Positions 1 through 16,829 of a DNA stretch of 36,309 bases are shown here, in pieces. Where the stretch lies: the IMG/VR virus record IMGVR_UViG_3300038797_000018, positions 1 through 36,309 of that record; one strand, given 5' to 3'. The notes under the pieces were generated by a model that worked only from the letters and a program-made list of their open reading frames with translations, was not told where the DNA came from and ran no database searches. Within the stretch, counting starts at the first letter, position 1; each line of letters begins with the position of its first letter. Position numbers and translations under genes: made by a program. The stretch comes from a virus. Its lineage: Duplodnaviria; Caudoviricetes.

Positions 1-160
1 GGCGCATGCATTCGCTCCAGGTGCCTGGGGCTGGGTTGAGCTCGGCGGGGTTGATTACGCTGTGCCCGGCGGCGCGGAGGGTGGCGGCCGTGGAATGGAA
101 CAGCGGGAAGTTCAGGTCCAGCATGTTACTCATGGGGCCGCTGAGGTAGATGCGCTTCAT
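1..160 (-). CDS. DUF4406 / nucleoside 2-deoxyribosyltransferase-like protein (5' part; runs off the window)
   Basis: Manual translation MKRIYLSGPMSNMLDLNFPLFHSTAATLRAAGHSVINPAEL... has the IYxSGPM and NPA motifs; ATGA overlap with the stop of 157..738. Confidence 0.8.
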   Translation of the reverse strand, partial: MKRIYLSGPMSNMLDLNFPLFHSTAATLRAAGHSVINPAELNPAPGTWSECMR

Positions 161-738
161 GCTGCCTCCTGCTGCGGCTGTTCTTGGCGCAGCGCCTGTT
201 GCACCGCGAGGATGATTCGTTCGAGATACGCATAATCGGGATTGGGTTCAGTGGCATCGCTCGTCATGTGCCACCACTCGTCGCCGAACAGCTTTGTCAT
301 CAGCTCGCTGTGGACGGCGTGCAAATGATCAATCGATGGCGATTCGCGCAGATCTGCCGCCGAGTCGAACAGCTCGCGCGCCTCATATGATGTGAGGTCA
401 AAACGGCGTCGCTCTTTCAGAACCAACCGCTGCGCTTCCTTGGCCAAGGCATCACCACTGAATTGCCGCGAGCGCAGTGACTGGTCGAAGTAGCCGATGA
501 TGTAGCTGGTGTTCAGCTCACAGAAGAACTGCGCAATGGTGTGACCATCCCACATGCCGCCCCAGTAAGCGGTCCAGCTCTTTCCCCAGCAGCTGACGGT
601 GATCTTGCCGCGCTTCGGTGCCAGGTCCTCAAGGAACACGGTGATCGGATCGAGGCTTGGCGCGCCGGTGATCACCAGCTTGGTCACAGTCGAGCGCTCA
701 ACCTTCAGCGGCTCGGCCGGTTTGTTTTCTGTGGGCAT
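157..738 (-). CDS. Hypothetical phage early protein (193 aa)
   Basis: Long ORF, AGGA upstream, ends in the EAA/ATGA coupling typical of phage early operons. Confidence 0.8.
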   Translation of the reverse strand: MPTENKPAEPLKVERSTVTKLVITGAPSLDPITVFLEDLAPKRGKITVSCWGKSWTAYWGGMWDGHTIAQFFCELNTSYIIGYFDQSLRSRQFSGDALAKEAQRLVLKERRRFDLTSYEARELFDSAADLRESPSIDHLHAVHSELMTKLFGDEWWHMTSDATEPNPDYAYLERIILAVQQALRQEQPQQEAA

Positions 739-838
739 GGGGCGTCCTATGCCGGGGCATGCCCGGGCGGTGGAGATTTATCGCCTGAACCAAATAGCTC
801 CTGCATAATCAGCGGAACTGAATTGGCTGGAGAGCGAA

Positions 839-1543
839 TTGAAAAAGGATTTCGTGGTTTGGGGTGGATGCGTTCTTTTGTTTTGCGCAGGTGTTATTTG
901 GGGTGGTGGCAGATTTGATTTAGCCTTCTTCAAGATCGCAAATATCCATGATCTTTTTGAAATTTTTTCGTCTGCCGCGACTGTTGCAGCTGTTTTTTTG
1001 GCGTTCATCGGTGTTAACGCTTGGCGTCAGCAACTGGGTGCTCAGTCTGATCACGCTCTTGCCCAGCGTGTAGCGATCGCAGCGCTTAAATACAAAGAAG
1101 TTTCTCGATCGGCCTATAACGATGCACATTTTGCTGTTACTCAATTCCGTTATGGCTTGGACACCGTGCCGGAAGGAATACTTGACCGGTTTATTATCAA
1201 CATGGAGAGCAGGCTTCAGAAAGGTCAGGATTCGAAGGCTGAGTTCCTCGCCGTGTTGCTCGAATCGCGCGCAATATGGGGATTAGAGTTCTCTTCGAAA
1301 TATGATGAGCTGATCGGCATCACCGAAGGATTTTATGGCTGTGTTCGCATGTTTTTTAAATGGGCTCGCTTAGATCCAAATGACGAATTAACAGAGGCTT
1401 ATGAGGCGTCACTCCAAAAGCACTATGATTATTTCGATGAGCAGGGATGGCTATTACTTAGCGCCGCCCAAGTTCCAAAGTTTGATGAGTTGACGCAGTC
1501 AGCAGATGAAGATCTTCGCGAAAAGCTGCTCAAGTCAAGTTAA
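839..1543 (+). CDS. Moron: membrane-anchored hypothetical protein (two N-terminal hydrophobic segments)
   Basis: AT-richer than its flanks, opposite strand to the operon, GGAG RBS before a TTG start. Confidence 0.75.
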   Translation: MKKDFVVWGGCVLLFCAGVIWGGGRFDLAFFKIANIHDLFEIFSSAATVAAVFLAFIGVNAWRQQLGAQSDHALAQRVAIAALKYKEVSRSAYNDAHFAVTQFRYGLDTVPEGILDRFIINMESRLQKGQDSKAEFLAVLLESRAIWGLEFSSKYDELIGITEGFYGCVRMFFKWARLDPNDELTEAYEASLQKHYDYFDEQGWLLLSAAQVPKFDELTQSADEDLREKLLKSS

Positions 1544-1556
1544 ATGAACGGCCGAA

Positions 1557-1934
1557 TTAGGCTGCTCGCGAATTATCAGGCACCCAATCGGCGAAGCCTA
1601 CTTTAGGCGCCCCTGTTTTAGGATTGATGATCGGCTTTTTCTTAGCGTCCACTAGGACGGCCTTTGTCCTGATCTTCAGATCGCGACAGACGATGCTCGC
1701 CCGGGCCATCTCCATGAACTGCTGGGCGTACTGGGGGGCGTCGAACATCGGGGAGAGGCGCACGCTCTTTTTGCTGGCCATGATCCTTTCGACCTCAGCC
1801 TCAACCGCCTCCTCCCACTCAGCAATCGTCCGCTCGAGACGCTTGCCGCCATCCATCTTGTGGGTGCTGGTGGTCTCCTTGGCTTCTTCGCGAGCCCAGC
1901 TTTCACTCATTCCAAACACGGCAAAAGTAGTCAT
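1557..1934 (-). CDS. Hypothetical phage protein (125 aa)
   Basis: ORF in the early operon with GGAG upstream. Confidence 0.7.
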   Translation of the reverse strand: MTTFAVFGMSESWAREEAKETTSTHKMDGGKRLERTIAEWEEAVEAEVERIMASKKSVRLSPMFDAPQYAQQFMEMARASIVCRDLKIRTKAVLVDAKKKPIINPKTGAPKVGFADWVPDNSRAA

Positions 1935-1938
1935 TGGA

Positions 1939-2247
1939 TCACTCCAGGCAGTCGAGGGCCTTCTGCAGAAACTGGTTGATGGTCATTGATTGGTCGTCGG
2001 GGTCCATTGCTCGTTTGATCCACATACAGGCATCTTCGACTTCGTCCTGCAGGTCGCTAAGCTCGCCGGCGACCTCGTCCGCATCATCTTCGATGCGGCG
2101 AATTCGCTCCTGAAGCTCTTCGTGCTCGGCGCGCGGGTCGATGCATTGGGCAGTAAGGCGACGGGTCAGCTCGGCAGCAGCCGCCGGCTCGAGCGATGCG
2201 TAGTGCAGGCACTCTTCGTCGCTCAAGGCATTTGCGGGGATGCTCAT
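1939..2247 (-). CDS. Hypothetical coiled-coil phage protein (102 aa, MSIPANALSDEECLHYA...)
   Basis: GGAG RBS precedes the ATG at 2247; the longer listed ORF overlaps a + strand gene. Confidence 0.7.
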   Translation of the reverse strand: MSIPANALSDEECLHYASLEPAAAAELTRRLTAQCIDPRAEHEELQERIRRIEDDADEVAGELSDLQDEVEDACMWIKRAMDPDDQSMTINQFLQKALDCLE

Positions 2248-2346
2248 GGCAGTTCTCCAGGCATACGCCTGCCTCGCCGGCTGGCGTGATTCGTAGAAGT
2301 GGGGTATTTGTGTTCGGCCCGGCATGGAGCCGGAAGGGGATTCAAA

Positions 2347-2643
2347 TTGAAGCGATTGATGATCGCGCTTGCCGCACTCATACCGATGGCCGCTTCCGCA
2401 GAATCGGTGAAGGAAATGTATCCGGCGCCATGGGTCTATGAATTCAACAACGCGGTAACCGGCGCGCTGGTTCAGGCAAAAGTGAAAGGTTGCGGAATTT
2501 ATCGCTACCGTGTCAGCCGCAGCAGCGACAGCGAATACCTCGTTTACTGCTCTCGGGACAATGAGATCTGGAAGGCCTATATGGTGTGGCCGAACATCAA
2601 CAAGGTGATGGGGCCATACGAACCTGATCCCGAGCTGCCTTAG
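2347..2643 (+). CDS. Moron: small exported protein with signal peptide
   Basis: TTG start after AGGGGA; (M)KRLMIALAALIPMAASA|ES is a Sec signal; two Cys in the mature part. Confidence 0.7.
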   Translation: MKRLMIALAALIPMAASAESVKEMYPAPWVYEFNNAVTGALVQAKVKGCGIYRYRVSRSSDSEYLVYCSRDNEIWKAYMVWPNINKVMGPYEPDPELP

Positions 2644-3004
2644 TTTCGGGCTTCTCGACTTCGTCGTCAGGCTCTGGCGGATCATCGGCAAGCGACTTCA
2701 TGCCGGCCGCTTCAATAAGTCGCGACACCTTTTCAGTAACCACAAAAGGTGTCGTGACACACTTGAGCATCTGGGACTGGGTTTCGAAGTCGGCGGCGAT
2801 CAGGTTCATCAGCAGCAGCTGGTAAACCTCTTGCTGATTGTTGATGCCGTGAGCTGCCATGACCCGCTTGAGGTCGGGCTTGAACACCCCGGCGACTTCA
2901 ACCGTAAACTTCTCGACGCCCAATGCAGCGTCCTTTGCTGCTGCCTTCTCGCGCTTTTTCTTCTGCTTGATGGCTTCCTTCGTCGGCTCCTGTACTTCGG
3001 CCAT
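2597..3004 (-). CDS. Hypothetical phage protein (135 aa; basic N-terminus, possible DNA binding)
   Basis: GAGGT RBS; part of the early operon. Confidence 0.7.
   Translation of the reverse strand: MAEVQEPTKEAIKQKKKREKAAAKDAALGVEKFTVEVAGVFKPDLKRVMAAHGINNQQEVYQLLLMNLIAADFETQSQMLKCVTTPFVVTEKVSRLIEAAGMKSLADDPPEPDDEVEKPETKAARDQVRMAPSPC
2719..2760 (-). repeat. Dispersed motif copy A: GTGTCACGACAC-N20-GTGTCGCGAC
   Basis: Read directly; same architecture at 11940-11979 and 19360-19401. Confidence 0.8.
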
Positions 3005-3073
3005 GGCCTACCTCTTCAATTCCGCTGGCCGGCAAGTCCAGCCAGGTCTGTCGTTTGCGTTGTTGGATTCGAG

Positions 3074-3667
3074 CTATGCGGCGCATGAAGTACAGCCGCG
3101 CCGCGCCTTCGGATAATCGATGCCGTGATTGGCGAGAATCCGCTCGAGTGTTTTGTTGGCGATGCCGAGGCGTCCACACACTTGCCGGCGAGTGGTGCCC
3201 AGTTCAAGGAATGCCCGGATCCGCTCGGCGAACTTTGCGTCGCGAGCTTCCAGATGCTCCTCCCGGTCTTTACCGGTCATGCGGCCGCGAGCCGCACCTT
3301 TGAACGTCAGGTCGTGGGTCTGGGCGATGTTGTAGAGCGTGCGGCGGCTGATTCCGAGTGCTTCAACGATCTCTGCCTGCGTGTGCGTCGGCGCCATTTC
3401 GCGAATCCGTTTGAGCTGATGCATGCGCTCCTGATGGCGAATGTCTTGAGCTGACAGCGGTTGAGGCGGGGCAGGCGCCCGACGCCGAACGAATGGCTTC
3501 GGCGCCGGCGGCATTTGGTTGCTGTAGCTGATCGGCTTCGGCTTGTAGCCGATTGGCTCCGCCTCTTGAATCGTCCCGCCAGCGGATAGGAACTCTTCAA
3601 CCTGCGCCGCAAGCTCGTTGGATTTCGGTCGAAGGGCTTCGACCATGCTGAGGTGGTTGCTGATCAT
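3074..3667 (-). CDS. SutA-like RNAP-binding motif fused to tandem helix-turn-helix domains
   Basis: N-terminal VEALRPKSNELAAQVEEFLSAGGTIQEAEP resembles the SutA core as recalled (VEAKQKERDALAKAMEEFLSRGGKVQEIEP); HTHs at TQAEIVEALGISRRTLYNI and TRRQVCGRLGIANKTLERIL. Confidence 0.7.
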   Translation of the reverse strand: MISNHLSMVEALRPKSNELAAQVEEFLSAGGTIQEAEPIGYKPKPISYSNQMPPAPKPFVRRRAPAPPQPLSAQDIRHQERMHQLKRIREMAPTHTQAEIVEALGISRRTLYNIAQTHDLTFKGAARGRMTGKDREEHLEARDAKFAERIRAFLELGTTRRQVCGRLGIANKTLERILANHGIDYPKARRGCTSCAA

Positions 3668-4281
3668 GCTGCGATCCCCAGTACCTGGTTCATGCGATCC
3701 TCAAGGATCTCGTAGAAGGTTTTCACCCGCTCCGAGAGCTTGCGGATCATTGCCTCGTCGCGGTAGGCGCGCTTGATGAAAAGCGGCATGCCCGGCCAGT
3801 AGCAGACGAAGTCGATCCACTCGCGTTCCGACACCCACAAGCCGCCTTGGCATTGGGCGATGTGCTCTTTCGGGATCTCACCGCCGAGGATCACCTCGAC
3901 CTGTAGCTTAGGAAGCTTGGTTTTGATTTCTGTCAGTCCGTCCTCAAGCACCAGGGAGTCCGGCGAGTAACCGATGCCATGGTTGAGGATGATGCCGACC
4001 TGCGTGGTTTTCACTTCTTCGCGATCTTCGTACAGGGTGCGCGCGGCGCCTTCCAGTTCGTGGCCGCGTTCGGTATGGCGGTTGCCCGTGAATGGGTCGG
4101 CCAGCTCGCCAGTGATGCGCTCGCCGATCAGGGTGTTCATGTAGGTGAATGCCCCTGCGCCGAATCCAGCTTCACCCTTTCCGTTGACCAGCAGGCTGTC
4201 CAACTCCGAGCAGGTGACAATGCCAAGGCGCAAAGCAAGCCACTCAGGCGTACCTTGCTGAATATCCGTGATGATTTGCAT
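3664..4281 (-). CDS. YqaJ / lambda exonuclease family 5'-3' exonuclease
   Basis: QGTPEWLALRLG, RGHELE, SPD, EIK and QCQGGLWV motifs; adjacent to the annealase. Confidence 0.9.
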   Translation of the reverse strand: MQIITDIQQGTPEWLALRLGIVTCSELDSLLVNGKGEAGFGAGAFTYMNTLIGERITGELADPFTGNRHTERGHELEGAARTLYEDREEVKTTQVGIILNHGIGYSPDSLVLEDGLTEIKTKLPKLQVEVILGGEIPKEHIAQCQGGLWVSEREWIDFVCYWPGMPLFIKRAYRDEAMIRKLSERVKTFYEILEDRMNQVLGIAA

Positions 4282-4284
4282 GGT

Positions 4285-5046
4285 TTACTCCTGCGGCCGG
4301 CTGGCTGCTTTGGTGATCCGCGCTGAAACTGCATCGAACTCGGATTTGAAGACGTTGGCTGCACACCCGTATTTGGCCGCGAAGTTGTCCTGTAGCACCT
4401 GACTGCACTTCTTCAGCAACGCGTCCAGTTGAGCGGCCTGGCCAGCGGTGATGACCGGCTCTTTCGGCGGTTCGGGATTCTTATTGGCGCCTTGGCCGTC
4501 ATCGTCTTCGCCCGTGGTGGTGAAGTTGAGCAATGCGCCGGCGGTGTAGCGTTTCCCGTAACTGACAGAGCTGGCCACCGCCTGAACGGCGTTTTTATTG
4601 CCGCTGACATCCGCAGGGAGAAAGATCGACGTCACCTCTCGATGGCCGGCGCGGTGGCTGAGTACGCCCTCGACCTCAACCCCGCCCTGAGTGCGTGGAA
4701 TTCGGAACGACAAGCCAAACCCGTGCTTAGCGAGGACGGGTTTGATTTGTTCGTTGATGTCTTCCCACAGCGCGTAGGTGGATTGAACGTTCTTGAACTT
4801 GTCGCGGATCGCTCCGCGTTCGCCGATCACCGGCATTTCCTCCTGCATCTGAGCCAGCGCTTCGTCGTACTGCTGTTTCGCCTGCTGCGCCTGGTAGCGT
4901 TCGTGCATCGCCATCAAGCGTTCCATCTTGTCGATGTCGGCATCCGGGGACATCGCCACCTGCTGGATGATCGACATGATTGTTGCCGATTCGGTTTGCA
5001 CGGCCGGGACGCGCTCGACCTTTTCTGTCACTGCCAGATTGCTCAT
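4285..5046 (-). CDS. ERF-family single-strand annealing recombinase
   Basis: YA-WEDI, PVLAKHGFGLSF, QAVASSVSYGKRY and EDDDG motifs of the ERF superfamily. Confidence 0.88.
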   Translation of the reverse strand: MSNLAVTEKVERVPAVQTESATIMSIIQQVAMSPDADIDKMERLMAMHERYQAQQAKQQYDEALAQMQEEMPVIGERGAIRDKFKNVQSTYALWEDINEQIKPVLAKHGFGLSFRIPRTQGGVEVEGVLSHRAGHREVTSIFLPADVSGNKNAVQAVASSVSYGKRYTAGALLNFTTTGEDDDGQGANKNPEPPKEPVITAGQAAQLDALLKKCSQVLQDNFAAKYGCAANVFKSEFDAVSARITKAASRPQE

Positions 5047-5053
5047 AGCGACC

Positions 5054-6178
5054 TCAGTAGCTGATTGAAATGGCGGGGATCTTGCGCTGGGCGATCAGAG
5101 TGATTGCCTGCTTGGCGCATTCTTCAGGCATGCCGCCGGCAATAAACGCTTCGAGTGCGGCGCGGTTGATTGCCCTGCGGTGTGCTTCGTCCTGCTCGCG
5201 CGCCTGCTGCTGGCGGACGATTTCGGCAGCCGCTGCATCGGCGCGGCGGCGCTCGTCAGCACGAGCTTGCTCTGCGGCCTGCTCGGCACGTTGCTCGGCG
5301 GCGATGCGATTCGCTTCCGCCTGCTCTGCCACAAGTCGAGCCTGCTCGGCCTGCTGCTCAAGCTGGAGGCGCTGACGCTCGGCCTGTGCCTCTGCTTCGC
5401 GGGCAGCTTGCTCGGCGGCACGCTGCGCTGCGGCAGCCTGATCAAGCAACTCTTGCTCGCGGCGGGCGGCAGCGTCTCGTTCGGCCTGGGCACGCTGCTC
5501 AGCTTCGCGGCGGGTGCGCTCTTCAGCTTCCCGGGCGATCTGTGCATCCCGATCGCGCTGAGCCTGTGCTTCGGCTTCGGCGCGCAACCGTAGCAGTTCA
5601 GCCTGTTCGGCTTCGTACCGCGCTCGCTCGGCGTGCAGGGTGCGCAGCTTGATCAGCGTCTGGTCTTTCACCTGGGCGGCTTCGGCCAAAAACTCTTCCC
5701 AGCTATCGCCGATTTCGAGCAGTTCGAGGTCGGCGATGAGGCTGGCCAGGTGGTCGGACGTTGGCGCCGTTTCGAAGATGGCGAGATCCTTGATGCGCTG
5801 GATCGCGTCGACGTGAGCGTCAGTCCGGGCAATCTCGGCCTGCTCCCAGTCCGTCAGCGGCTGGCGAGTTGCGTCACGCAGCGCGTCCATCTTGTTCACG
5901 AATTCGCGCAGCTCAGCTTCGACGACCTTTGGCATTTCCTTCAGGCGTTTGAGGTAATCGCGGCCCGGCTTTTCCACGGCTGTCTTCGACTTGCTGACCT
6001 TTGCTGCCAGAGAGGCGATACGCTCGCGGCCCTTACGAGTGGTCAGGTCTGGAACCTCGGCGGCGACCTCAGCGGCTACCGCGTCGAAGAACTGGCCAAG
6101 GCCGCCAGCAACATAGATGGCCGGTGCGTTTTCTTCGCTGATGTCGTCGATCTTGATGACTTGCTGTTGTGCGGACAC
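5054..6178 (-). CDS. Long coiled-coil phage protein upstream of ERF (374 aa)
   Basis: Ala/Glu/Arg/Gln-rich helical region; GTG start with AAGGA upstream. Confidence 0.8.
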   Translation of the reverse strand: MSAQQQVIKIDDISEENAPAIYVAGGLGQFFDAVAAEVAAEVPDLTTRKGRERIASLAAKVSKSKTAVEKPGRDYLKRLKEMPKVVEAELREFVNKMDALRDATRQPLTDWEQAEIARTDAHVDAIQRIKDLAIFETAPTSDHLASLIADLELLEIGDSWEEFLAEAAQVKDQTLIKLRTLHAERARYEAEQAELLRLRAEAEAQAQRDRDAQIAREAEERTRREAEQRAQAERDAAARREQELLDQAAAAQRAAEQAAREAEAQAERQRLQLEQQAEQARLVAEQAEANRIAAEQRAEQAAEQARADERRRADAAAAEIVRQQQAREQDEAHRRAINRAALEAFIAGGMPEECAKQAITLIAQRKIPAISISY

Positions 6179-6221
6179 GGGGAATCCTTGCCGCGACGTG
6201 CGCAGCGCTTGAAGTTGAAAG

Positions 6222-6338
6222 TCAGGAGGTGATGCGATCGGCGAGGGCGCTGAGCAGCATCAGGAAGGCGAACATGCCGATGGCGGAGAACCGGCCGCGC
6301 CAGATCAGTGTTCTACGGGCCAACTGCCGGCTGGTCAT
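6222..6338 (-). CDS. Small hydrophobic peptide (38 aa, MTSRQLARRTLIWRGRFSAIGMFAFLMLLSALADRITS)
   Basis: Manual translation; ATGA coupling with the upstream ORF. Confidence 0.55.
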   Translation of the reverse strand: MTSRQLARRTLIWRGRFSAIGMFAFLMLLSALADRITS

Positions 6339-6460
6339 CGAAACACTTGGTAGGTGGTGGAGCGCGGCACCTGGCAAGTGCCCGAGCCATCGCGAATGAC
6401 ACCGTAGGCGCCGGCGCCGGCAACCAGAATCACAACGAGAATCCAGTAGACGAGATTCAT
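6335..6460 (-). CDS. Small membrane peptide (41 aa, MNLVYWILVVILVAGAGAYG...)
   Basis: Manual translation; ATGA overlaps at both ends. Confidence 0.6.
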   Translation of the reverse strand: MNLVYWILVVILVAGAGAYGVIRDGSGTCQVPRSTTYQVFR

Positions 6461-6651
6461 GGCCGAGCCCTCACAGCGATGCGACCGCCTTTCATGGTCA
6501 CCGACAGGCGCTGCGGGAGGCTGTCGACCAGATCCTCGCGCTTGCGGCCGATCACTTCGTTGAAGGGCAGGCCGAAGCCGAGAATCGCAATGCGGCGCTC
6601 GATGTCGTCGAGCTGCTCATCGACCAGCGTTTTCACCAGAGGGGTTGTCAT
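6457..6651 (-). CDS. Hypothetical phage protein (64 aa)
   Basis: Coupled ATGA chain with GGAG RBS. Confidence 0.7.
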   Translation of the reverse strand: MTTPLVKTLVDEQLDDIERRIAILGFGLPFNEVIGRKREDLVDSLPQRLSVTMKGGRIAVRARP

Positions 6652-6863
6652 GCCGAAACTCCTTTCAGATGCGTGTTGCGCTCCACGAACTTGGCGTCGA
6701 GCGCATCCCGATAACGATTGGCGGTGCGGGTGTCGATGATCTCGGCGAACTCAGCCATTTCGATCATGCCCATGACGAAGGTGCGATCCGGCACCGGAGT
6801 GCAGGACTTGCGCATCTTCGCGATCTCAAGGCCCAGTCGAGCCAGTGCTACCTGATTGCTCAT
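6648..6863 (-). CDS. Hypothetical phage protein (71 aa)
   Basis: Coupled ATGA chain. Confidence 0.7.
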   Translation of the reverse strand: MSNQVALARLGLEIAKMRKSCTPVPDRTFVMGMIEMAEFAEIIDTRTANRYRDALDAKFVERNTHLKGVSA

Positions 6864-7288
6864 AGCTCGTTGTCCTCGGCCTGGGCGATCAGCGCATCAT
6901 CGACAAGGGGTCGAAGTAGGCCCTCTGCGATTTCGCCGAGCTTGCCCAGTGGGTGGTCGCTGGGGCCGAGGAGTTCGGCGGAGGCGACCTTGTCAGCGTG
7001 GCCGCGCTCGGCGGCGATCAGCAGGTAGCCCAGCGAAGCCGTGGTGACCTCGCAGTCTGCAAGCCGTCCGTTTGCATGCTCATCAACTGCCAGAGCGAAC
7101 TGGGCCAGCGTGACACCCTGAGCCGGCCGCATGCGGCGCTGGAACGAGACGTCGCAGCCGAACCGCACCAACTGCTCGGAAGCGTTGTACAGCCACTCAG
7201 TCCGAGCCACTTCCTGCGCGCTCTCGCTCACCATCGGAGGCAACTGCGCGTCGTGCATGGCCTGACAAATCTTCAGTGCTGCGTTCAT
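6860..7288 (-). CDS. Hypothetical phage protein (142 aa, MNAALKICQAMHD...)
   Basis: GGAGG RBS and ATGA overlap at 7285-7288. Confidence 0.72.
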   Translation of the reverse strand: MNAALKICQAMHDAQLPPMVSESAQEVARTEWLYNASEQLVRFGCDVSFQRRMRPAQGVTLAQFALAVDEHANGRLADCEVTTASLGYLLIAAERGHADKVASAELLGPSDHPLGKLGEIAEGLLRPLVDDALIAQAEDNEL

Positions 7289-7563
7289 GCTGCCTCCGGC
7301 CAATGGCGCTTAATGCTCTCTTTTGCGTAAATGGACAGCCGCTCGTAACTGTTCACGCCACCGCAACCGGGCATGGTTCCCTCCAGTTCGACGCAGGCGC
7401 GGATATCGCAGCGGCGCGAGCAAACCCAGCCGCCGTAATGACAGCGGTGGACTTCACCTTTTGGATCGGGGTGATAGGCGAGGCCGCCTTTCCACGAAGG
7501 CGAGCCGCGCAGCTTCAGCCCGCAACCTCGGCAAACTGCTTGTGTGTCGGTGCAGTTGTGCAT
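7285..7563 (-). CDS. Cys-rich putative zinc-finger protein (92 aa)
   Basis: CRGC and CSRRC motifs; GGAGG RBS. Confidence 0.72.
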   Translation of the reverse strand: MHNCTDTQAVCRGCGLKLRGSPSWKGGLAYHPDPKGEVHRCHYGGWVCSRRCDIRACVELEGTMPGCGGVNSYERLSIYAKESIKRHWPEAA

Positions 7564-7584
7564 GGCGACCTCCAGTATTTGGGG

Positions 7585-7908
7585 TTAGGCGGAACGGGCG
7601 GCGAGCATGGCGTCGGCGAGCTCGTAAGATGCAGTTGCGATCTTCTCGTTGCTGATCAGGCCCCATGTGTCTGCATGAGAGCAGATGCCTTGCATGGCCT
7701 TGGCTGCGAAGTAGTCGCGAATCGTGAGCCCGAAGCAGGTGCCGTGCCCGCCGTATTCGTTGGCGCCGACAGGAAAGGCCGGTTCCTTTGCGGCGTCGAC
7801 GGCTTGGCACTCGAAGCAAATGCCGCCGGACTGTTCCGAATCCTCGATCAAGCTGCTGCACTTCAAGCACGACCCGAAGCGTTCCGGATCCGGTGGCTGA
7901 AAATTCAT
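7585..7908 (-). CDS. Phage protein with N-terminal Zn ribbon and GLTIRDYFAAKAMQG...AYELADAML domain
   Basis: CLKC/CFEC pair; recurrent phage motif; GGAG before the ATG at 7908. Confidence 0.75.
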   Translation of the reverse strand: MNFQPPDPERFGSCLKCSSLIEDSEQSGGICFECQAVDAAKEPAFPVGANEYGGHGTCFGLTIRDYFAAKAMQGICSHADTWGLISNEKIATASYELADAMLAARSA

Positions 7909-8136
7909 GGCTTTCTCCATTTGTTGATTGATCCAATAAAACTCGCAATGCACTCATCCGCTCCGCTGGTTGCCGTTGGGCGCGGAGGGGAGTGCATTCG
8001 TACTTGTGTAGGGGGGAATGCCGGTTACGTCTCCGGCGCCAGCCTCTGCTGGCCGTGGTCCAGGGTTTTGAGTCCCTGTGCTACTGGGCTCTACGGGACT
8101 TGATGCAGGTGGGCGGTTATAGGCCGCAGTTTCGTC

Positions 8137-8269
8137 CGCATCGGGGTGTGATCTACGCGAGGTCGTCACCTCTGGCTTCACCTGCCGCCGCGCTTTGTCG
8201 ACGGTGCTCAGTGGCTGGCCTGATTACGAGTCAGGTGCCTTGCTCCGCTGTAGATCACACCCCGATGCG
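8137..8269. repeat. Perfect 20-bp inverted repeat CGCATCGGGGTGTGATCTAC enclosing 93 nt
   Basis: Arms at 8137-8156 and 8250-8269. Confidence 0.9.
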
Positions 8270-8322
8270 CTCTCATAGAGAGGATCGGGCAGTTAACGAC
8301 AGGCTGTCGTGGCGCTGGTTGT

Positions 8323-8505
8323 TCAGTCGTGGTAGCTGAGCACCGTGTGAACGTCGTGCACTTCGCTGATCTCGCCGCACTCCAGCTCCTCGACCAGTTC
8401 GATGTACTCATCGACGTTTCCTTGGCGGTCCAGAGTGATAATCGCGATCTCGGTCACGACGCGGGTGATCTTCGCCTTCACGCGGCGCGGTTTTTGTTCT
8501 TGCAT
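8323..8505 (-). CDS. First ORF of the pL operon (60 aa, MQEQKPRRVKAK...)
   Basis: GAGGG RBS; basic N-terminus and acidic C-terminus. Confidence 0.6.
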   Translation of the reverse strand: MQEQKPRRVKAKITRVVTEIAIITLDRQGNVDEYIELVEELECGEISEVHDVHTVLSYHD

Positions 8506-8776
8506 CGTCTTGCCCTCGGTTGTTTTCCCAATGCACCCGTCACCAGGTGCATCAGTGAAAAATTCCGTGTTGCTATCCGCCCCATGCTCGGCGCCTCGGT
8601 TTCCCCACCTGGCCGGCGTCACACATTTCGTGTTCGGTGTTATTCGCCGGCTGGCTTGCATGGTTTGGCGTCCTCCCATATGGGGAGTCCGGCAGGTTCC
8701 AGAGCCTGCATGGGGATCGAAGTTTGTGTTTCGCGCTATGCCCGTTGCCGGGGATCGATCCGCGAAGATTCCTGAC

Positions 8777-8788
8777 TGTTAAAGAGCG
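8777..8788 (-). promoter_or_regulatory. boxA antitermination element (nutL-like), CGCTCTTTAACA
   Basis: Exact consensus boxA about 45 nt downstream of the predicted pL start. Confidence 0.8.
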
Positions 8789-8839
8789 GCGGGTCTGTTG
8801 AGGCCCTTCGCAGTGGCTGTGTGTCGCTGCGATGGGTGC

Positions 8840-8891
8840 AATTTAGAAAACTTAACAAAATACGTCAACACTTATTTTAGAAAACTTAACA
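8840..8891 (-). promoter_or_regulatory. pL promoter (TTGACG-N17-TAAATT) with OL operators
   Basis: -35 at 8863-8868, -10 at 8840-8845; TTTAGAAAACTTAACA is repeated at 8842-8857 and 8876-8891. Confidence 0.82.
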
Positions 8892-8961
8892 GGCGGAGCG
8901 AATAGGTAACGGATCGCGCTCATCGCAACAGGTCTTTTTGTTTAGGAACCTTCACGCTATG

Positions 8962-8977
8962 CTGTATTTATATACAG
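8962..8977 (+). promoter_or_regulatory. LexA (SOS) box CTGTATTTATATACAG
   Basis: Perfect CTGT-N8-ACAG overlapping a -10-like TATGCT (8958-8963). Confidence 0.85.
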
Positions 8978-8997
8978 TAAAATATGGAGGGTTTTGG

Positions 8998-9312
8998 ATG
9001 ACTAAAAAGCAGGCTAAACCGGCAATGCGGCATGAGATGAGCGGGGTTGAGCGACTTGGTCTGAGGGTGTCATCAATGATCAACCACCCTATCGCGCAGG
9101 ATCAGCGGTGGGTGACGATCCATCGCCTGGATACGGATGGAGATCGGGAGTGGGAGGAGGTGATGGGCGTGCTGTCCGAAACGGACGGTATAGAAATTAC
9201 GTTCAACGACGACGATTCGGTGACACTGAAGTGGGAGGCATCATCAGAAAACGATCATGAGGTTGCGGTGCCTGACGAGTTCATGAAGGTGGAGGAGGTT
9301 GCGCCATTTTGA
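8998..9312 (+). CDS. DUF1654 family protein
   Basis: ERLGLRVSSMINHPIAQ...WVTIHRLDTD motif typical of Pseudomonas prophage DUF1654; GGAGG RBS. Confidence 0.8.
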   Translation: MTKKQAKPAMRHEMSGVERLGLRVSSMINHPIAQDQRWVTIHRLDTDGDREWEEVMGVLSETDGIEITFNDDDSVTLKWEASSENDHEVAVPDEFMKVEEVAPF

Positions 9313-9319
9313 TGGACAC

Positions 9320-9348
9320 AAAAAAGCCCGGCGCTGGGCCGGGCTTTT
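9320..9348. terminator. Bidirectional intrinsic terminator
   Basis: AAAAAAGCCCGGC-loop-GCCGGGCTTTT between convergent genes. Confidence 0.8.
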
Positions 9349-9360
9349 GGTGCAGGGAAT

Positions 9361-9867
9361 TCAGTGGGACTTTACTTCTCTCGATGCGTGCGATGCTGTG
9401 TGCGCGACGGAGGAGTATAGAGACGCTAGGGTAGGGATAGCTTTCATCCTGTTAGTCACCAGCCCAATGATGCTCAGTACTGCCACCGAAAACAGAAACA
9501 CCGGCATGCACACCAGGGAGGTCAGCGGATTCTTAGTGACGTACATTTTCACAATGGAATCAATAATCTCAGAATGCTGCGCGCTCGGCTTGCGAGGCAC
9601 ATGTCCTGCTCCGCGGATAAGTATGCTCAAAGCGAGCCACACCGGCGCCACCAAGGTCATGGCAGGCATGAAGATCCATAGCCTTGCAAAACGGTATGTC
9701 CAGTAAGCGGAGTCCCTATCGTCCTCAGAGACTTTGTGGTCTTCGAAATATTTTTCGAGCAATTCCGCGACTTTTTCTTGGTGCTTGAGCGAGGCATTCC
9801 TGCAGCTCACCCAATATAGGATCACTGCGAAGGCACAGATCAGCGCGAGAATAATCGTGCTCATCAT
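9361..9867 (-). CDS. Multi-pass membrane protein downstream of cI
   Basis: Three hydrophobic segments; ATGA coupling to 9864..10127; GGAGG RBS. Confidence 0.75.
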   Translation of the reverse strand: MMSTIILALICAFAVILYWVSCRNASLKHQEKVAELLEKYFEDHKVSEDDRDSAYWTYRFARLWIFMPAMTLVAPVWLALSILIRGAGHVPRKPSAQHSEIIDSIVKMYVTKNPLTSLVCMPVFLFSVAVLSIIGLVTNRMKAIPTLASLYSSVAHTASHASREVKSH

Positions 9868-10127
9868 TTTTTTCCTCCGGGTTTAGCTTTTAGGCGTTTT
9901 TTGCTGGCCTTTCTCGATGATTCGATCCGTTTGTCAATCTTTCGTTCGGGTTTGTTAGCAACCATCCAAACGTAAGAAATCCAAAAAGGCAGAAAACACG
10001 TCATAACGATTACAAAATACCCTAGAAACTCTGACTTGTCCCAAACCACCAGAAACAGATTTGCAACCGAATCTATTATTTTCTCTAATCCCTCAAGAGA
10101 AAACGAACGTGAGCCTTCTTCGGCCAT
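9864..10127 (-). CDS. Small membrane protein with Lys-rich C-tail downstream of cI
   Basis: Hydrophobic core FLGYFVIVMTCFLPFWISYVW; AT-rich. Confidence 0.7.
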   Translation of the reverse strand: MAEEGSRSFSLEGLEKIIDSVANLFLVVWDKSEFLGYFVIVMTCFLPFWISYVWMVANKPERKIDKRIESSRKASKKRLKAKPGGKK

Positions 10128-10205
10128 GCTTTGACATTCCCTTGATCGCTGATTTCATGAGATTTATTTTTTCTGCTTGAGCACTGAGCCTGTCTACGCC
10201 TACGC

Positions 10206-11036
10206 CTACGCTTTGCGACCGTTCCATATGAACAGAACCTTTGCGTGGATCGTCACGTCATCGATTCTGGCGGTCTGGTTTTCATAATGCTGGTTATCCG
10301 AGATGAGCCTGTAATTGTCTTCGTCCAAGCGCATTACCCGCTTGATGTACAGCTCCTGGTGCCAAGTTACGACGTAGATCCCTTCGCCAACGAACTCTTT
10401 CACGCCGCGATCAACGATCACCAGATCCTTGTCATTGATCGTGCCTTCCATCGATTGGCCCCAGCCGGTGATCATGGCTAGCGCACTGGCTGAGGTGTAC
10501 GTCACTCCCTTCTCGCGCAAGATCGCCTCACGCACCACAAGGTTGCGGACCGCCTCGTTGTACTCAGGCGGAACCTGGCCGTGGCCCATTGCGGCACGGA
10601 TGTCGTATTGAGGGATCAGGATCTCGTCGTTCGTTGGGCGCAGCACCGCGTAATTCTTCGGTAGGTATTGCTGCCCGTTTACAGCAGGGGTATCGGCTTC
10701 GGCTGCTGCCGCCAAAACCATTTCCCGCGCTTTCTCTGACAGGTTCTTCCCGGCTTTTGTCGCAAGCATGTGAGCCACCAGTTCCGCGCTGGTAGCGCCT
10801 GATTTCGGGCCATCTTGCGATGCGGCATCACCTGGCGATCCCGTTCCTTCAGACAGCCATTCAGGCGAGCACTCAAGAGCCTTCGCTAGCGCGAGAAGAT
10901 TTTTACCCTTCGCCCCATTAGTGCCGGACACCCAAAAGCTGACGGTCGCTTTGGAAACGCCAGTCGCTTTGACTATGTCCGCAGGCGTCAGGCCTAAGGC
11001 CTTCATGCGCTCGGTGATGCGGTCTTTAAATTCCAT
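10206..11036 (-). CDS. cI: CI-like repressor (XRE HTH plus S24 autopeptidase)
   Basis: HTH TPADIVKATGVSKATVSFW; catalytic GQSM and IKR motifs; divergent from cro; probably leaderless ATG at 11036. Confidence 0.92.
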   Translation of the reverse strand: MEFKDRITERMKALGLTPADIVKATGVSKATVSFWVSGTNGAKGKNLLALAKALECSPEWLSEGTGSPGDAASQDGPKSGATSAELVAHMLATKAGKNLSEKAREMVLAAAAEADTPAVNGQQYLPKNYAVLRPTNDEILIPQYDIRAAMGHGQVPPEYNEAVRNLVVREAILREKGVTYTSASALAMITGWGQSMEGTINDKDLVIVDRGVKEFVGEGIYVVTWHQELYIKRVMRLDEDNYRLISDNQHYENQTARIDDVTIHAKVLFIWNGRKA

Positions 11037-11100
11037 ATTTAGGATTCTAAACAAATCACTGTTTAGATAACTTGCCTTGTGTTGTTAAGAACTCTAAACT
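11037..11100. promoter_or_regulatory. OR region: three 16-bp operators (consensus GTTTAG-N4-CTAAAC) and pR (TTGCCT-N17-TAAACT)
   Basis: ATTTAGGATTCTAAAC 11037-11052, GTTTAGATAACTTGCC 11061-11076 and GTTAAGAACTCTAAAC 11084-11099 match the OL sites. Confidence 0.82.
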
Positions 11101-11125
11101 CGGCGTAGACACTGGAGACACAACC

Positions 11126-11335
11126 ATGACCTACGACGAAGCACTGACACATTTTGGCACTGGCCGCGCTATCGGCGACGCCCTTGGCGTGACTGGCAGC
11201 CGGGTATCTCAGTGCCGGGCCACGGGCGGCTTCTCCTACCCAATGCAATGCGTTTTGGAGAAGGAGTCGAGCGGAGCGCTGATAGCGAAACGCGAAGACG
11301 ATCCCGCCCAGGCGCTCAAGAAATCCGCCGCATAA
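11126..11335 (+). CDS. cro: Cro-like repressor (69 aa)
   Basis: MTYDEALTHFG...AIGDALGVTGSRVSQ HTH; GGAG RBS; divergent from cI. Confidence 0.85.
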   Translation: MTYDEALTHFGTGRAIGDALGVTGSRVSQCRATGGFSYPMQCVLEKESSGALIAKREDDPAQALKKSAA

Positions 11336-11367
11336 CCATTTTTCCATCACCAAGGAGCATCACCCGT

Positions 11368-11580
11368 ATGGCCTTTGACAACCCGGCCCACAAACGTAGC
11401 GAAGTGATCAAGACCCGTCACAAGCCCGAGGAAGCTCGGAAGTTGCGCATGGAAGCCCGTTTGGCCGGCATGCAGTTGGCGACCTACGTCTACGAGCTGG
11501 CGAACCTGGCTCGCAGCCTGGGCGCCGCCGATCTTCTTCGAGAACACCACGGGGCCAGCAAGCAGGATAAATCGGCTTAA
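11368..11580 (+). CDS. Small DNA-binding regulator in the cII position (ribbon-helix-helix-like)
   Basis: AAGGAG RBS; beta-helix-helix pattern VIKTR...EARKLRMEA...GMQLATYVYE. Confidence 0.65.
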   Translation: MAFDNPAHKRSEVIKTRHKPEEARKLRMEARLAGMQLATYVYELANLARSLGAADLLREHHGASKQDKSA

Positions 11581-11598
11581 GACCCCTATGGAGGGCCT

Positions 11599-11805
11599 AT
11601 GCCTGAAACAACATTCGAAATGCTGCCGCTGGAGGTGCAGGAAGAGGTTCGACAGCTGAGTGTCGATCTCGGATGGAGCCTTGAAAGAGCGGCAGATGAA
11701 TACCTTGAGATGGGCAGGTCGCTAGCGCTTCAAGCCCAGCTCAAACAGGTACGGCGAAAAGCACCTGTGCTTTCGCTGGTAGGACACAAAAAGGGCCTCG
11801 ATTAG
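11599..11805 (+). CDS. Hypothetical phage protein (68 aa)
   Basis: GGAGG RBS. Confidence 0.65.
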   Translation: MPETTFEMLPLEVQEEVRQLSVDLGWSLERAADEYLEMGRSLALQAQLKQVRRKAPVLSLVGHKKGLD

Positions 11806-11902
11806 GACTCTTTGTGAACACAGAAGGGGCAGTCACTTTCCTTCGGACGAAAAAAAGCCGGGATTGCAGCCCGGCTCTCTTAAATCGCTTGTGGAGCAAA
11901 TC

Positions 11903-12574
11903 ATGCACCAATCAATCCAAACGATCAATACCCCGGCCAGTGTCGCGACACAATTTGGCAACGGTGAAAACGTGTCGCGTACAGATGAAATCGCCCGGGA
12001 GATTCTTTCAATCCAGGCGGGTACAGCGCCAATGGGTGTCGTTTATGAATGGGCCTTCAAGGTCGTTGCACTCGCAAGCCAGAAGGTCGGATCAATTGAT
12101 CTAGGCGACTTAGACCACATGGATCGTGCCCAGGCTCGCGCTGCTCTGGATGAGATTGAATCCGGACGCGAATACCTGCGTGGGATTGCGCCGGCGTTTG
12201 ACAACTACCCGTATATCGCTGCGGTGATGAAATTTCACCTGAGCGCTCTCTTCTACGCGGAAGCAACGCTGATTCCTTTCTACATCCTCACCAACAAGAC
12301 CGCCGTAGCGCGCAAAGACGAATCAACCAGCACCTACATCGTTCGGCACCCCATGACGGGCCTGATCAAGATTGGACGCACGAACGATGTTCCTGGCCGT
12401 CTCAAATCTCTGCAAACGGGAGCCGGGGCCATTCTCGCTACGCTGGCGGTGATACCGAGCGACGTTGAAAGCAAACTGCACAAAAAATTTGCGGCCTTTC
12501 GGCGGCATGGTGAGTGGTTCGAGGATGTTGGCGGTGCTATCAGCGACTACGCGAAAACCATGGAGGCTGCGTAA
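11903..12574 (+). CDS. T5orf172 / GIY-YIG-like domain protein (antirepressor-type position)
   Basis: C-terminal YIV...IKIGRT...RLKSLQTG...ESKLHKKF...GEWF; GGAG RBS before the ATG at 11903. Confidence 0.82.
   Translation: MHQSIQTINTPASVATQFGNGENVSRTDEIAREILSIQAGTAPMGVVYEWAFKVVALASQKVGSIDLGDLDHMDRAQARAALDEIESGREYLRGIAPAFDNYPYIAAVMKFHLSALFYAEATLIPFYILTNKTAVARKDESTSTYIVRHPMTGLIKIGRTNDVPGRLKSLQTGAGAILATLAVIPSDVESKLHKKFAAFRRHGEWFEDVGGAISDYAKTMEAA
11940..11979 (+). repeat. Dispersed motif copy B: GTGTCGCGACAC-N20-GTGTCGCG
   Basis: Read directly. Confidence 0.8.
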
Positions 12575-13380
12575 TGGCCCGTGCACGCAACATCAAACCC
12601 GCATTGTTCAAGAACGAAATCCTTGGCGTAGCCGACCCAATGGCAACGCTTCTGTTCGAAGGGCTGTGGCTGCTCGCCGACAAAGCTGGCCGCCTCGAAG
12701 ATCGCCCGATACGAATCAAGGGGGAGCTTTTCCCGTACCGCGATGGGCTGGACGTTGAGGGGCTTTTGAGGTTCCTCGCAAACGAAGGTTTTATTGTTCG
12801 GTACTCAGTCGGACCGAAGCGTTACATCCAGGTTGAGAACTTCGACAAACATCAGAACCCGCATCGTAATGAACCGGAGTCAGTTATCCCTTCTGTATCA
12901 GAGGGTTGTATCACTACCGATTTTGGCGGAAGTACTTCTGCCATTCTCGGTAGCGCTCCGGCTGATTCTCTGATTCCTGATTCCGGATCCCTGACTGCTG
13001 ATTCCCTCACCGCGTCAACGCCTTCGGCATTGCCGACTTCGCCGAGTGACGACCTCTTCCCGAAGTTCTGGAAGATGTACCCGAACAAGAAGGGTAAGGC
13101 CGCAGCTGAAAAAGCCTGGAAGAAGCTCAAGGTCACTACTGACCTGTTCCGCCAGATTGCCGAAGGCCTGGCTGCCCAAGTCGTTTGCGAGGCGTGGGTC
13201 AAGGACGGCGGCCAGTTCATTCCTCACCCGGCGACATGGCTGAACGGCAAGCGCTGGGAAGACGAGGTGAAAGTGGCCAGCAATGTGCACCCGTTCCCGC
13301 AATCCCGTCACACCGGCTTCGCTGAACGCGACTATCACGCCGGCCTGAAACAACGGGAGGACGGCAGCTATGCGCTCTGA
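12574..13380 (+). CDS. Phage replication initiator (O-like)
   Basis: MARARNIKP N-terminus; FWKMYP-K-GK--A-KAW and HPATWLNGKRWED C-terminal motifs; upstream of the helicase loader. Confidence 0.85.
   Translation: MARARNIKPALFKNEILGVADPMATLLFEGLWLLADKAGRLEDRPIRIKGELFPYRDGLDVEGLLRFLANEGFIVRYSVGPKRYIQVENFDKHQNPHRNEPESVIPSVSEGCITTDFGGSTSAILGSAPADSLIPDSGSLTADSLTASTPSALPTSPSDDLFPKFWKMYPNKKGKAAAEKAWKKLKVTTDLFRQIAEGLAAQVVCEAWVKDGGQFIPHPATWLNGKRWEDEVKVASNVHPFPQSRHTGFAERDYHAGLKQREDGSYAL
12960..13008 (+). repeat. CTGA(T/C)T(C/G) short tandem repeats inside the initiator gene; probably part of the phage origin
   Basis: gctgattctctgattcctgattccggatccctgactgctgattccc; lambdoid origins lie within O. Confidence 0.5.
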
Positions 13381-14176
13381 GCCAGTCCAAGCCAGTCCCG
13401 AACTGCCGCCGGGCACTCGCATCCAGCCAGCCGAGTGCGAAACCCACGGCGCCTACGAGCAGAAGGTCTATGCGGTGCTGGGCCGCGAGCTGAAGAGCAA
13501 CTGCCCCGAATGCAGCCGTATCGCCCGGGAGAAGTCCGAAGCAGCTGAGCAAGCCAATAAGTCGATGGAACTGCGCATGTCCCTCGCTCGCAAGCTGGGC
13601 GATGCGTTGATCCCGAAACGCTTTACCACTCGCACCCTGGGCAACTACCAGGCCGAGAACGACGGCCAGCGTAAGGCCCTCCGGTTCTGCCAGCACTACG
13701 TGCAGATCTTCGACGAGATCCTGAAGACGGGTCGCTGCATGGTGCTGATCGGCAAGCCCGGTACCGGGAAAACGCACCTCGGCGCCGGCATGGCCAACGA
13801 GCTGCTGCACAACACGTCGCGCACGGCCGTGTACCGCACTGTCGGCGCAATCCTTCAGGCGATCCGCTCCACGTACGACAAGCACAGCGAACGCAGCGAG
13901 GCCGAGATTCTGTCGAGCCTGATCGATCCCGATCTGCTGGTGCTGGACGAGGTAGGCGTGAGCAAGGAGCAGCCGAGCGACTTCGAGCTGACGACCCTGT
14001 TCGCAATCATCAATGGCCGGTACGAGCAGGAGCGCCCGACAGTGGTGATCTCCAACCTCGAAGCCAGCCAGTTGCCGGCCGCCATGGGTGACCGCTGCGT
14101 CGACCGCTTGCGCGAGGGCGGAATGATCGTGGTCCCGTTCGATTGGGAATCTCAGCGCGGCAAGGAGGGTTTCTGA
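13370..14176 (+). CDS. DnaC/IstB-like AAA+ helicase loader
   Basis: Zn motif CETHG...CPEC, Walker A GKPGTGKT, Walker B LLVLDEVG, DRL sensor. Confidence 0.92.
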   Translation: MRSEPVQASPELPPGTRIQPAECETHGAYEQKVYAVLGRELKSNCPECSRIAREKSEAAEQANKSMELRMSLARKLGDALIPKRFTTRTLGNYQAENDGQRKALRFCQHYVQIFDEILKTGRCMVLIGKPGTGKTHLGAGMANELLHNTSRTAVYRTVGAILQAIRSTYDKHSERSEAEILSSLIDPDLLVLDEVGVSKEQPSDFELTTLFAIINGRYEQERPTVVISNLEASQLPAAMGDRCVDRLREGGMIVVPFDWESQRGKEGF

Positions 14177-14177
14177 A

Positions 14178-14402
14178 ATGACCATCGACAAACAAAAACT
14201 CCAGAAGCTGCTGTGGGCCGAAGCCGCGTCCTACCGTGCTGACTGCGCAGACTGGAAGCGCAACACCGAGGCGCTTCAGGAATTCCTCGGGGAGAAGACC
14301 GTGGAGGAGGTGGCGCTGGAGCTGCTGGCGGAGAACGAGCGACTGACAAAGCAGCTCGGTGAACTGATCGACGGGCTCTCAAGCCAATTGGTGCAGCCAT
14401 GA
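14178..14402 (+). CDS. Hypothetical phage protein (74 aa)
   Basis: GGAGG RBS; coupled to the next ORF. Confidence 0.7.
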   Translation: MTIDKQKLQKLLWAEAASYRADCADWKRNTEALQEFLGEKTVEEVALELLAENERLTKQLGELIDGLSSQLVQP

Positions 14403-14875
14403 ATCCACTGATCGTTCGACAGATGCAACCGTGCCCGGTGAGTTGCGTTTCAACGTGCCTCGCGATGCTTGCCGGTCGACCTGCTGCTGAGGTCATCGAT
14501 GAGCTGCACAATCCATACCGTGAGGGCGAGCTGACCATGCGCGAAATGCTCGAATACCTCGGGATAAAATACACGGCGTTTTTCAGTGTCGACAACCCGC
14601 CCCTGGCGGACGAGGGCGTTTATCTCTGCACGGCGCCGTCACTCAATATCGAAGCTGGCAATCACCAGATCCTGATCGAGGTGACCGGTGGGGGTTACTT
14701 TGTGATTGACCCGGTCCAAGGCCGCGAGGATCGCAAGTATTACGTGCCGCGCGGCCAGGGCAACGGTGATCCGCTTGCAATCGATATCGGAGGGTTCGTC
14801 GTCGATGCGTTCGTCTCACGTTCCCACCTGGTGGAGAAATACACGAACGCTATGGCGACGGAGGTTGCGGCATGA
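14399..14875 (+). CDS. Peptidase C39-like (papain-fold) protein
   Basis: Q-x4-SC-x2-TCLAM, later H (NHQILI) and D (VIDP). Confidence 0.6.
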   Translation: MNPLIVRQMQPCPVSCVSTCLAMLAGRPAAEVIDELHNPYREGELTMREMLEYLGIKYTAFFSVDNPPLADEGVYLCTAPSLNIEAGNHQILIEVTGGGYFVIDPVQGREDRKYYVPRGQGNGDPLAIDIGGFVVDAFVSRSHLVEKYTNAMATEVAA

Positions 14876-16402: not shown

Positions 16403-16412
16403 CAAAAAGCCA

Positions 16413-16739: not shown

Positions 16740-16791
16740 TCTTCCCTCGCTGGTGTTGCCATTTGAATGGCTGAAATTCAAATTTAGTACA

Positions 16792-16821: not shown

Positions 16822-16829
16822 CCCTCAAA

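Follow-up and report, generated by a model that had tools for sequence, protein, structure and literature searches.

What might an early phage protein do if it combines a docking segment for host RNA polymerase with two DNA-binding domains? The question is raised by a 197-aa open reading frame (ORF) in the stretch of DNA analysed here (the window), a single viral record of 36,309 nucleotides (36.3 kb) with a lambdoid layout. A first-pass annotation had described this ORF as a motif like that of SutA, the RNA polymerase-binding factor of Pseudomonas, joined to two helix-turn-helix (HTH) domains, and had proposed that the phage carries a DNA-tethered SutA mimic. The genes around it are as follows:

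3074..3667, minus strand: gene for the 197-aa protein (P0001; PHROG 9129), with a SutA-type RNA-polymerase-binding domain (RBD), a linker and two HTH units
3664..4281, minus strand: YqaJ-type (lambda-exo-like) exonuclease, which closes the recombination module
4285..5046, minus strand: ERF single-strand annealing protein
2597..3004, minus strand: 135-aa protein with a basic N-terminus (PHROG 5439), the usual downstream neighbour
10206..11054, minus strand: CI-type repressor (HTH plus S24 peptidase), with a cro-like gene opposite

The 197-aa ORF is a conserved gene of a lambdoid Pseudomonas phage. Within the leftward early operon it comes immediately behind the recombination module, and its start overlaps the exonuclease stop by 4 nt; rightward, the window carries replication genes, ninB, ninG, holin, terminase, portal, capsid and tail genes. 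The protein matches phrog_9129 over its length (E 2.5e-50) and has 490 relatives at E<=0.001 among 711 candidates. Regional dN/dS values of the gene, obtained from 60 distinct 197-codon sequences and pairs of at least 75% identity, lie between 0.08 and 0.28. Cultured phages that carry the gene are phiAH14a, UFJF_PfDIW6, AH02 and PseuP_222. The named members of its 90% protein cluster come from P. atacamensis, P. iridis, P. koreensis, P. siliginis and unclassified Pseudomonas, so the host of this phage likely lies in the group of those species. One relative, UniProt A0ABU1CQ49, has already been named automatically as 'SutA RNAP-binding domain-containing'. The label 'DNA invertase Pin-like recombinase', which JGI attaches to some relatives, was rejected, since only the HTH resembles resolvase tails and the catalytic domain is unmatched.

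The motif stands in the ORF exactly as first described, spacings included, and the SutA core given in the first-pass annotation agrees with PDB chain 7f0r_G. A search against the SutA RNAP-binding profile, which the first-pass annotation had suggested as a check, matched Pfam PF20661 (SutA-RBD) over residues 17-35 with an E of 9.5e-7, yet at 28.5 bits against a gathering cut-off of 29.3 (0.8 bit under); some family members pass this cut-off (P0154 30.6, P0167 33.1, P0224 33.2 and L112 31.8 bits) and most fall below it. The NCBIfam SutA model (NF041490) gives E 7.7e-5 for residues 1-60, and its full-length cut-off of 145 bits is missed, the score being 21 bits over residues 4-38 only. Among PDB sequences, SutA (7f0r_G) is the top match both of the single phage protein (E 0.0076) and of a phage-only profile of 35 N-termini (E 3.8e-6); the runner-up of that profile is a designed repeat protein, which gets to 5.4e-6 only because six pieces of 4 bits each are added up.

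HMMs built from host proteins only score the phage protein at 25.3 bits for the SutA class (15 sequences), 20.2 for the PFL_1563 class (9 sequences) and 17.4 for a third class (9 sequences). Diverse phage proteins scored above the best of 2000 controls with shuffled N-termini in 38/40, 37/40 and 37/40 cases for the three classes respectively, the best control reaching 5.9 bits with the SutA-class HMM. Among the host RBD classes hhalign also put SutA first (97.5% vs 96.8% and 95.7%). In the reciprocal direction, a profile of 40 phage proteins matched the host sutA of genome G004 (E 8.7e-7; the same place as locus L111) and scored SutA at 29.1 bits vs 19.3 for the PFL_1563 paralogue. At E<=1e-5 this profile has matches in 182/199 Pseudomonas genomes, a count that leaves aside two unpublished ones; the weak matches mostly cover model positions 5-55 in frames of ~108-120 codons, and sutA identity is confirmed in G004 only. 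Pfam, NCBIfam, PDB, HMM and reciprocal-profile results thus bear out a SutA-like N-terminus fused to two HTHs, and as far as sequence comparison goes the phage N-terminus is homologous to the SutA RBD. The alignable 30 columns are too few for a tree to give donor or direction. A SutA-like Tyr-Gly C-terminal tail in some distant relatives was discounted, as the profile alignment to SutA ends before the tail.

The protein can be divided as follows:

3554..3652, minus strand: predicted polymerase-binding segment of SutA type, residues 6-38 (a helix, then Gly-Gly and a putative short strand)
3452..3553, minus strand: Pro-rich extended linker, residues 39-72
3302..3451, minus strand: HTH unit 1, residues 73-122
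3110..3271, minus strand: HTH unit 2, residues 133-186

An AlphaFold2 model (input, the 40-row diverse alignment; mean pLDDT 89.8, pTM 0.47), with which a second model agrees, predicts a helix at residues 4-28, an extended stretch at 29-72 and two three-helix units at 73-118 and 132-181. For residues 11-30 the pLDDT is 96-97. The short strand after the helix is absent from this monomer model; in SutA it pairs with the polymerase sheet in the complex, according to the available text of PMC9300723. HTH Pfams pass their cut-offs (HTH_23 35.9/24.6, HTH_7 31.7/23.8, HTH_28 29.2/25 bits), and the three-helix HTH fold appears twice in the model, so that the Pro-rich linker followed by two HTHs, as described before, is upheld. 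The two units resemble each other weakly (30% over 27 aa), and the recognition helix of unit 1 is variable, with 57 variants in 195 rows. The linker is strongly conserved in close relatives and variable in distant ones. In close relatives HTH unit 2 (dN/dS 0.08) and the linker (0.09) are more constrained than the RBD (0.26), and the HTH part is therefore not idle cargo. The VIA structure search, in which residues 1-72 were barely tested, gave generic HTH matches alone (Z<=6.1); Foldseek against the PDB gave no match at E<=0.001, BFVD returned a protein of Pseudomonas phage Skulduggery (E 5.1e-5) together with generic HTH proteins, and the ESM Atlas returned unnamed clusters only.

Is the docking face of SutA kept? 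PMC9300723, the numbering of which equals the PDB chain numbering minus 4, names ten positions of SutA at which a substitution weakened its binding to the polymerase beta protrusion. Seven of the ten are identical (L67->L19, F74->F26, L75->L27, G78->G30, G79->G31) or conservative (M71->V23, V81->I33) in the phage protein. The remaining ones differ (K60->L12, R64->S16, I84->A36), and alanine at any of these impaired SutA binding in the two-hybrid tests of the same paper, again in its available part. Both the kept and the changed positions are family traits. Among 194 distinct close relatives the kept ones are L19 in 191, F/Y26 in 191, L/V27 in 193, G30 in 194, G31 in 193 and I33 in 193, and the changed ones L12 in 180/194, S16 in 168/194 and A36 in 167/194. 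In 40 diverse relatives, which were picked by N-terminal similarity, so that this conservation test is partly circular, position 19 is L/I, 26 F/Y/W, 27 L/V/I, 30 G, 31 G and 33 I/V in all 40; position 23 is hydrophobic except for 8 Thr, and columns adjoining the interface ones vary. R13 is invariant in the 194 close relatives (15/40 in the diverse ones) and might act as a substitute. On the side of the polymerase, S59 and E73, residues named in the available text of PMC9300723, are present in RpoB of one lysogen host (L127).

That K60, R64 and I84 are not kept, and that the Pfam score lies under the cut-off, would suit a protein whose motif is a relic of SutA or serves another partner, i.e. 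an ordinary tandem-HTH early regulator without polymerase binding. This explanation also draws on the HTH-only genes that exist beside some RBD genes and on 3 of 19 diverged loci taken from the weaker genome matches, in which the HTH pair is intact and the Phe-Leu/Gly-Gly motif is lost. Of the same 19 loci, 7 begin with a shortened helix and score <10 bits on the host profiles, and 3 are broken. We consider a relic or another partner unlikely, however, given that the conserved columns coincide with the tested hydrophobic face of SutA, that the host PFL_1563 class has Ser at the R64 position too, and that the RBD persists without any HTH in an 80-aa form (379 viral contigs; 38/90 loci, see below).

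Docking, if it occurs, would not make the protein a SutA. SutA is an activator of rrn transcription by RNAP-sigmaS. It has an acidic, disordered N-terminal domain with 23 D/E in 55 residues, a domain that the phage protein lacks; before the K60 position the phage protein has 11 residues, one of them acidic. The acidic tail is required for activation by SutA (PMC9300723, available part; bioRxiv 10.1101/423384), and SutA without its tail acted as an inhibitor of transcription, with an effect that depended on dose (bioRxiv 10.1101/423384). With the acidic tail absent and the full-length NF041490 score missed, the phage protein is by its sequence not a SutA. The term 'SutA mimic' is overstated, since the tail needed for activation is absent. 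Competition with host SutA, one of the actions first suggested, fits this anatomy of a docking face kept and an acidic tail absent.

Our preferred reading, to which we give a little less than an even chance, is of an early polymerase-docking factor that would occupy the site of SutA without activating, its HTH pair adding a grip on DNA. Infection or induction would lead to synthesis of the protein from the leftward early transcript that CI controls. Its SutA-type N-terminal segment would dock where SutA does, in the groove of the beta protrusion of the host polymerase. In the absence of an acidic tail it would hold the site, displacing SutA and its chromosomal paralogues with no activation, so that SutA-dependent transcription (e.g. 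rRNA synthesis) would be lowered, as tail-less SutA does in vitro. The HTH pair, ~35 residues away on the Pro-rich linker, would raise residence on DNA-bound polymerase and may bias polymerase among promoters, as an accessory module. Counting against this reading are the changed positions K60, R64 and I84, the Pfam score under the cut-off, the diverged loci that have lost the motif, the 8/90 loci that lack an RBD gene near the slot (see below), the stronger constraint on HTH unit 2 and the linker, the unsuccessful search for a DNA target, and the matches of the short motif in unrelated repeat proteins.

The genomic slot shows which part of the protein is constant. For the two-HTH form, 93/101 loci have an upstream gene that could be assigned. 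Every one of these 93 genes belongs to one of five clusters, the type of each cluster being read from a single representative: YqaJ exonuclease 50, Gp157/Gam-like 28, long RecE-like 11, Sak4-like ATPase 3 and DnaQ-like exonuclease 1. In the cultured phages phiAH14a, AH02 and PseuP_222 the gene order agrees with a slot after recombination genes. An RBD profile search of 1.84 billion representatives gave 106 matches, 5 of them long unrelated repeat proteins (false); the forms among the 106 have one, two or three HTH units, or are 80-aa proteins with a basic tail, RBD-only peptides or fragments. In 76/80 loci the 80-aa HTH-less form (PHROG 14822) likewise comes after these recombination genes. 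Long and short forms do not occur together within the flanks (0/101 and 0/80); one 83-kb contig has both ~55 kb apart (L093, L206) and a few genomes have both at separate places, likely as separate prophages. Behind the RBD gene, 62 short-form loci and 0 long-form ones have a 156-aa gene (PHROG 5434; e.g. L193:5240-5707), for which no Pfam, NCBIfam, PDB or named Atlas match was found and which may replace the HTH pair in function.

An unbiased test of the slot started from 160 loci found through two other genes, of which 90 were usable (59 showed no recombination module in the DNA available, 6 lacked enough DNA behind it and 5 were duplicates). An RBD gene stands directly after the module in 75/90 (36 two-HTH, 38 HTH-less, 1 other) and, with a looser profile, within 2.5 kb of it in 82/90, being absent in the other 8/90 by the same profile and distance. 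The seven extra loci comprise three with a three-HTH form after an intervening gene, three with a weak RBD-plus-one-HTH form behind an HTH-only gene, and one with another tail. Because 82/90 relatives keep an RBD gene with zero to three HTHs, the polymerase anchor is the constant part and DNA tethering optional, and the anchor outlasts the recombination genes that precede it as well as the module that follows. DNA tethering as a constant feature, implied by the first-pass annotation, is thus not borne out: the HTH-less form fills the same slot in many relatives. A near-full-length two-HTH match is present in 35/198 Pseudomonas species genomes (the centre genome and two unpublished genomes left out).

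A broader form of the docking reading can be proposed on this basis, which we hold as possible but doubtful. The SutA RBD would be a portable RNA-polymerase anchor, through which a near-core early gene of lambdoid Pseudomonas phages brings exchangeable effector modules, 0-3 HTHs or a basic tail, to the beta protrusion. With two HTHs the protein would act as a factor guided by DNA that, through a surface not known to be used by phages, displaces the slow-growth factor of the host and steers polymerase to phage DNA.

The anchor–linker–DNA-reader anatomy of the AlphaFold2 model is also the classic one of a site-specific activator that works by recruitment: the HTH pair would read a phage promoter element and the RBD would pull in host polymerase, following the logic of GcrA with a new contact surface. 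Purifying selection on both HTH units agrees with such an activator, as does the persistence of the SutA RBD in the open complex (PMC9300723, in its available text). Residues 6-9 of the phage protein align with the SutA wedge loop (54-57, from the same partial source), these N-terminal residues are conserved, and wedging without a tail may be possible through them; residues 1-9 would then perhaps be the wedge. A fixed promoter element is, however, hard to reconcile with 0 to 3 HTHs in the same slot and with variable recognition helices, and a k-mer contrast between the two forms brought up no 10- or 12-mer characteristic of the long-form phages, the best k-mers occurring in 19/78 vs 0/51 upstream and 26/83 vs 7/57 downstream. 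A repeat search for a DNA target yielded no convincing repeats. We regard recruitment to a phage promoter as rather improbable.

GcrA of Caulobacter crescentus may be taken, by analogy, as the nearest working analogue. It shares the logic of a polymerase-bound cofactor with a separate DNA-binding domain, and differs in being a sigma70 cofactor and activator, the predicted phage contact being the beta protrusion (PMC4647560 and PMC5887438, as far as the accessible text goes); in structure comparison the two give a generic HTH match only (Z 5.0).

The place of the gene in the leftward operon bears on when it acts and on whether it could take the place of lambda N. One promoter candidate was considered:

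8840..8868, minus strand: candidate leftward early promoter, a consensus match only and at chance level

The search found 3 such sites vs 4.0 expected by chance, and the gene, which lies ~5 kb downstream of this candidate, does not stand at the operon's head. Because it is in a leftward early operon behind a CI-type repressor, the gene is likely silent in lysogens; the same position leaves the suggested action in dormant hosts unsupported. Relatives from RNA libraries are assembled contigs only, in which RNA and DNA cannot be separated.

An elongation or antitermination factor, loaded at a DNA site and riding polymerase in place of lambda N, would account for the lack of an N-like family match among the leftward ORFs scanned. 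DNA-loaded antiterminators occur in Pseudomonas (AlpA; PMC7969949, available part), and a factor at the beta protrusion site fits with the open complex (PMC9300723, available part). AlpA of P. aeruginosa, of prophage origin, and lambda Q resemble the predicted make-up of the phage protein in being DNA-binding proteins that also bind polymerase; they differ in acting in antitermination, and the flap rather than the protrusion is contacted by AlpA, Q and N alike (as given in the accessible part of PMC7969949). No sequence or fold link to them was found. The distal position of the gene after the recombination genes also disfavours this role, as do terminator-like sites at chance level (12 vs 13.2), and no antiterminator RNA was among the Rfam matches in window 1-20000. 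With nothing found linking the gene to antitermination, an action as a substitute for N has no support, and we judge such a factor very unlikely.

Lambda N and Nun are characterised by an Arg-rich RNA-binding motif, nut sites and the first position in the early operon. A small Arg-rich ORF in this region presumably recalls their RNA-binding motifs:

2898..3086, minus strand: small, unannotated Arg-rich ORF that begins inside the last codons of the 197-aa gene

Conservation with a coding pattern covers its first 29 codons (3000-3086); the unconserved tail reads on into the next gene in another frame. Over 60 distinct relatives, variation is highest at the third codon position (0.168 vs 0.038 and 0.052), and none of the variant codons is a stop. 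The ORF also follows the short-form cassette in 61/80 loci, and it had no family match in PHROGs or NCBIfam.

The leftward early leader further contains a perfect 20-bp inverted repeat (window 8137-8156 and 8250-8269; folding z -5.4). Its arms are kept around a variable insert in relatives, both arms being present in 23/341 loci; some of the inserts form tRNA-arm-like hairpins, in which ARAGORN finds no tRNA. The repeat may be a processing stem from which a variable small RNA is set free.

Earlier descriptions of SutA gave it neither homology to characterised proteins nor a known role in DNA binding. With SutA of Pseudomonas aeruginosa (PDB 7F0R, 7XL3, 7XL4) the phage protein shares the segment of predicted helix and Gly-Gly, with a putative strand behind it; unlike SutA, it has a C-terminal Pro-rich linker and two HTHs, and it is a phage early gene whereas SutA is chromosomal. 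It shares an RBD without acidic tail with the small proteins of the PFL_1563 family (NF058628) and with a chromosomal class of ~105 aa; these differ from it in having no HTH, in their other C-terminal tails and in being chromosomal. With PHROG 14822 and the phage forms that have 1 or 3 HTHs it has the N-terminus and the genomic slot in common; in PHROG 14822 a short basic tail takes the place of the HTH pair, and the PHROG 5434 gene usually comes next.

Both sutA and a tail-less PFL_1563-type RBD gene are present in 5/5 Pseudomonas genomes tested, at least one RBD match occurs in 47/61 genomes of the order (up to 9 in one genome), and the third class, of ~105 aa with a conserved C-terminal motif, was found among 29 genomes read. 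Loci with tail-less RBD paralogues in Pseudomonadales include L102-L106, L153, L154, L161 and others. Since tail-less RBD proteins are also cellular, the phage forms would be part of a larger unstudied family and not a one-off theft of sutA. We found no paper on phage-encoded SutA-RBD proteins in a literature search that covered few subscription papers, and the accessible part of the genome paper of UFJF_PfDIW6 (PMC8951688) makes no mention of the RBD protein.

If the phage proteins bind in the groove of SutA, phage take-over would have a target in the beta protrusion; RBD proteins without a tail, whether from phages or chromosomes, would then be natural antagonists of SutA, and a widespread hypothetical gene (as counted above among the Pseudomonas species genomes) would gain a testable function. 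The published two-hybrid and in vitro assays for SutA are directly applicable to the phage protein.

Other parts of the window hold features of separate interest. Two small genes with hydrophobic segments (9361-10127, minus strand; PHROGs 19124 and 21491) lie directly after the repressor, and because of this position they are suggested to be lysogen-expressed exclusion or defence genes. A 181-aa gene (PHROG 3412; 15857-16402, plus strand), with no Pfam match, stands directly after ninG, the usual place of a Q-type late regulator. In the late leader region the Rfam RNA Proteo-phage-1 (RF03044) is found at 16835-16912 on the plus strand with 74.9 bits against a cut-off of 42. Finally, a 323-aa ORF before the holin (17342-18313, plus strand) has two B-lectin (D-mannose-binding) stretches over the Pfam cut-off, and it may resemble the lectin-like bacteriocins of Pseudomonas.
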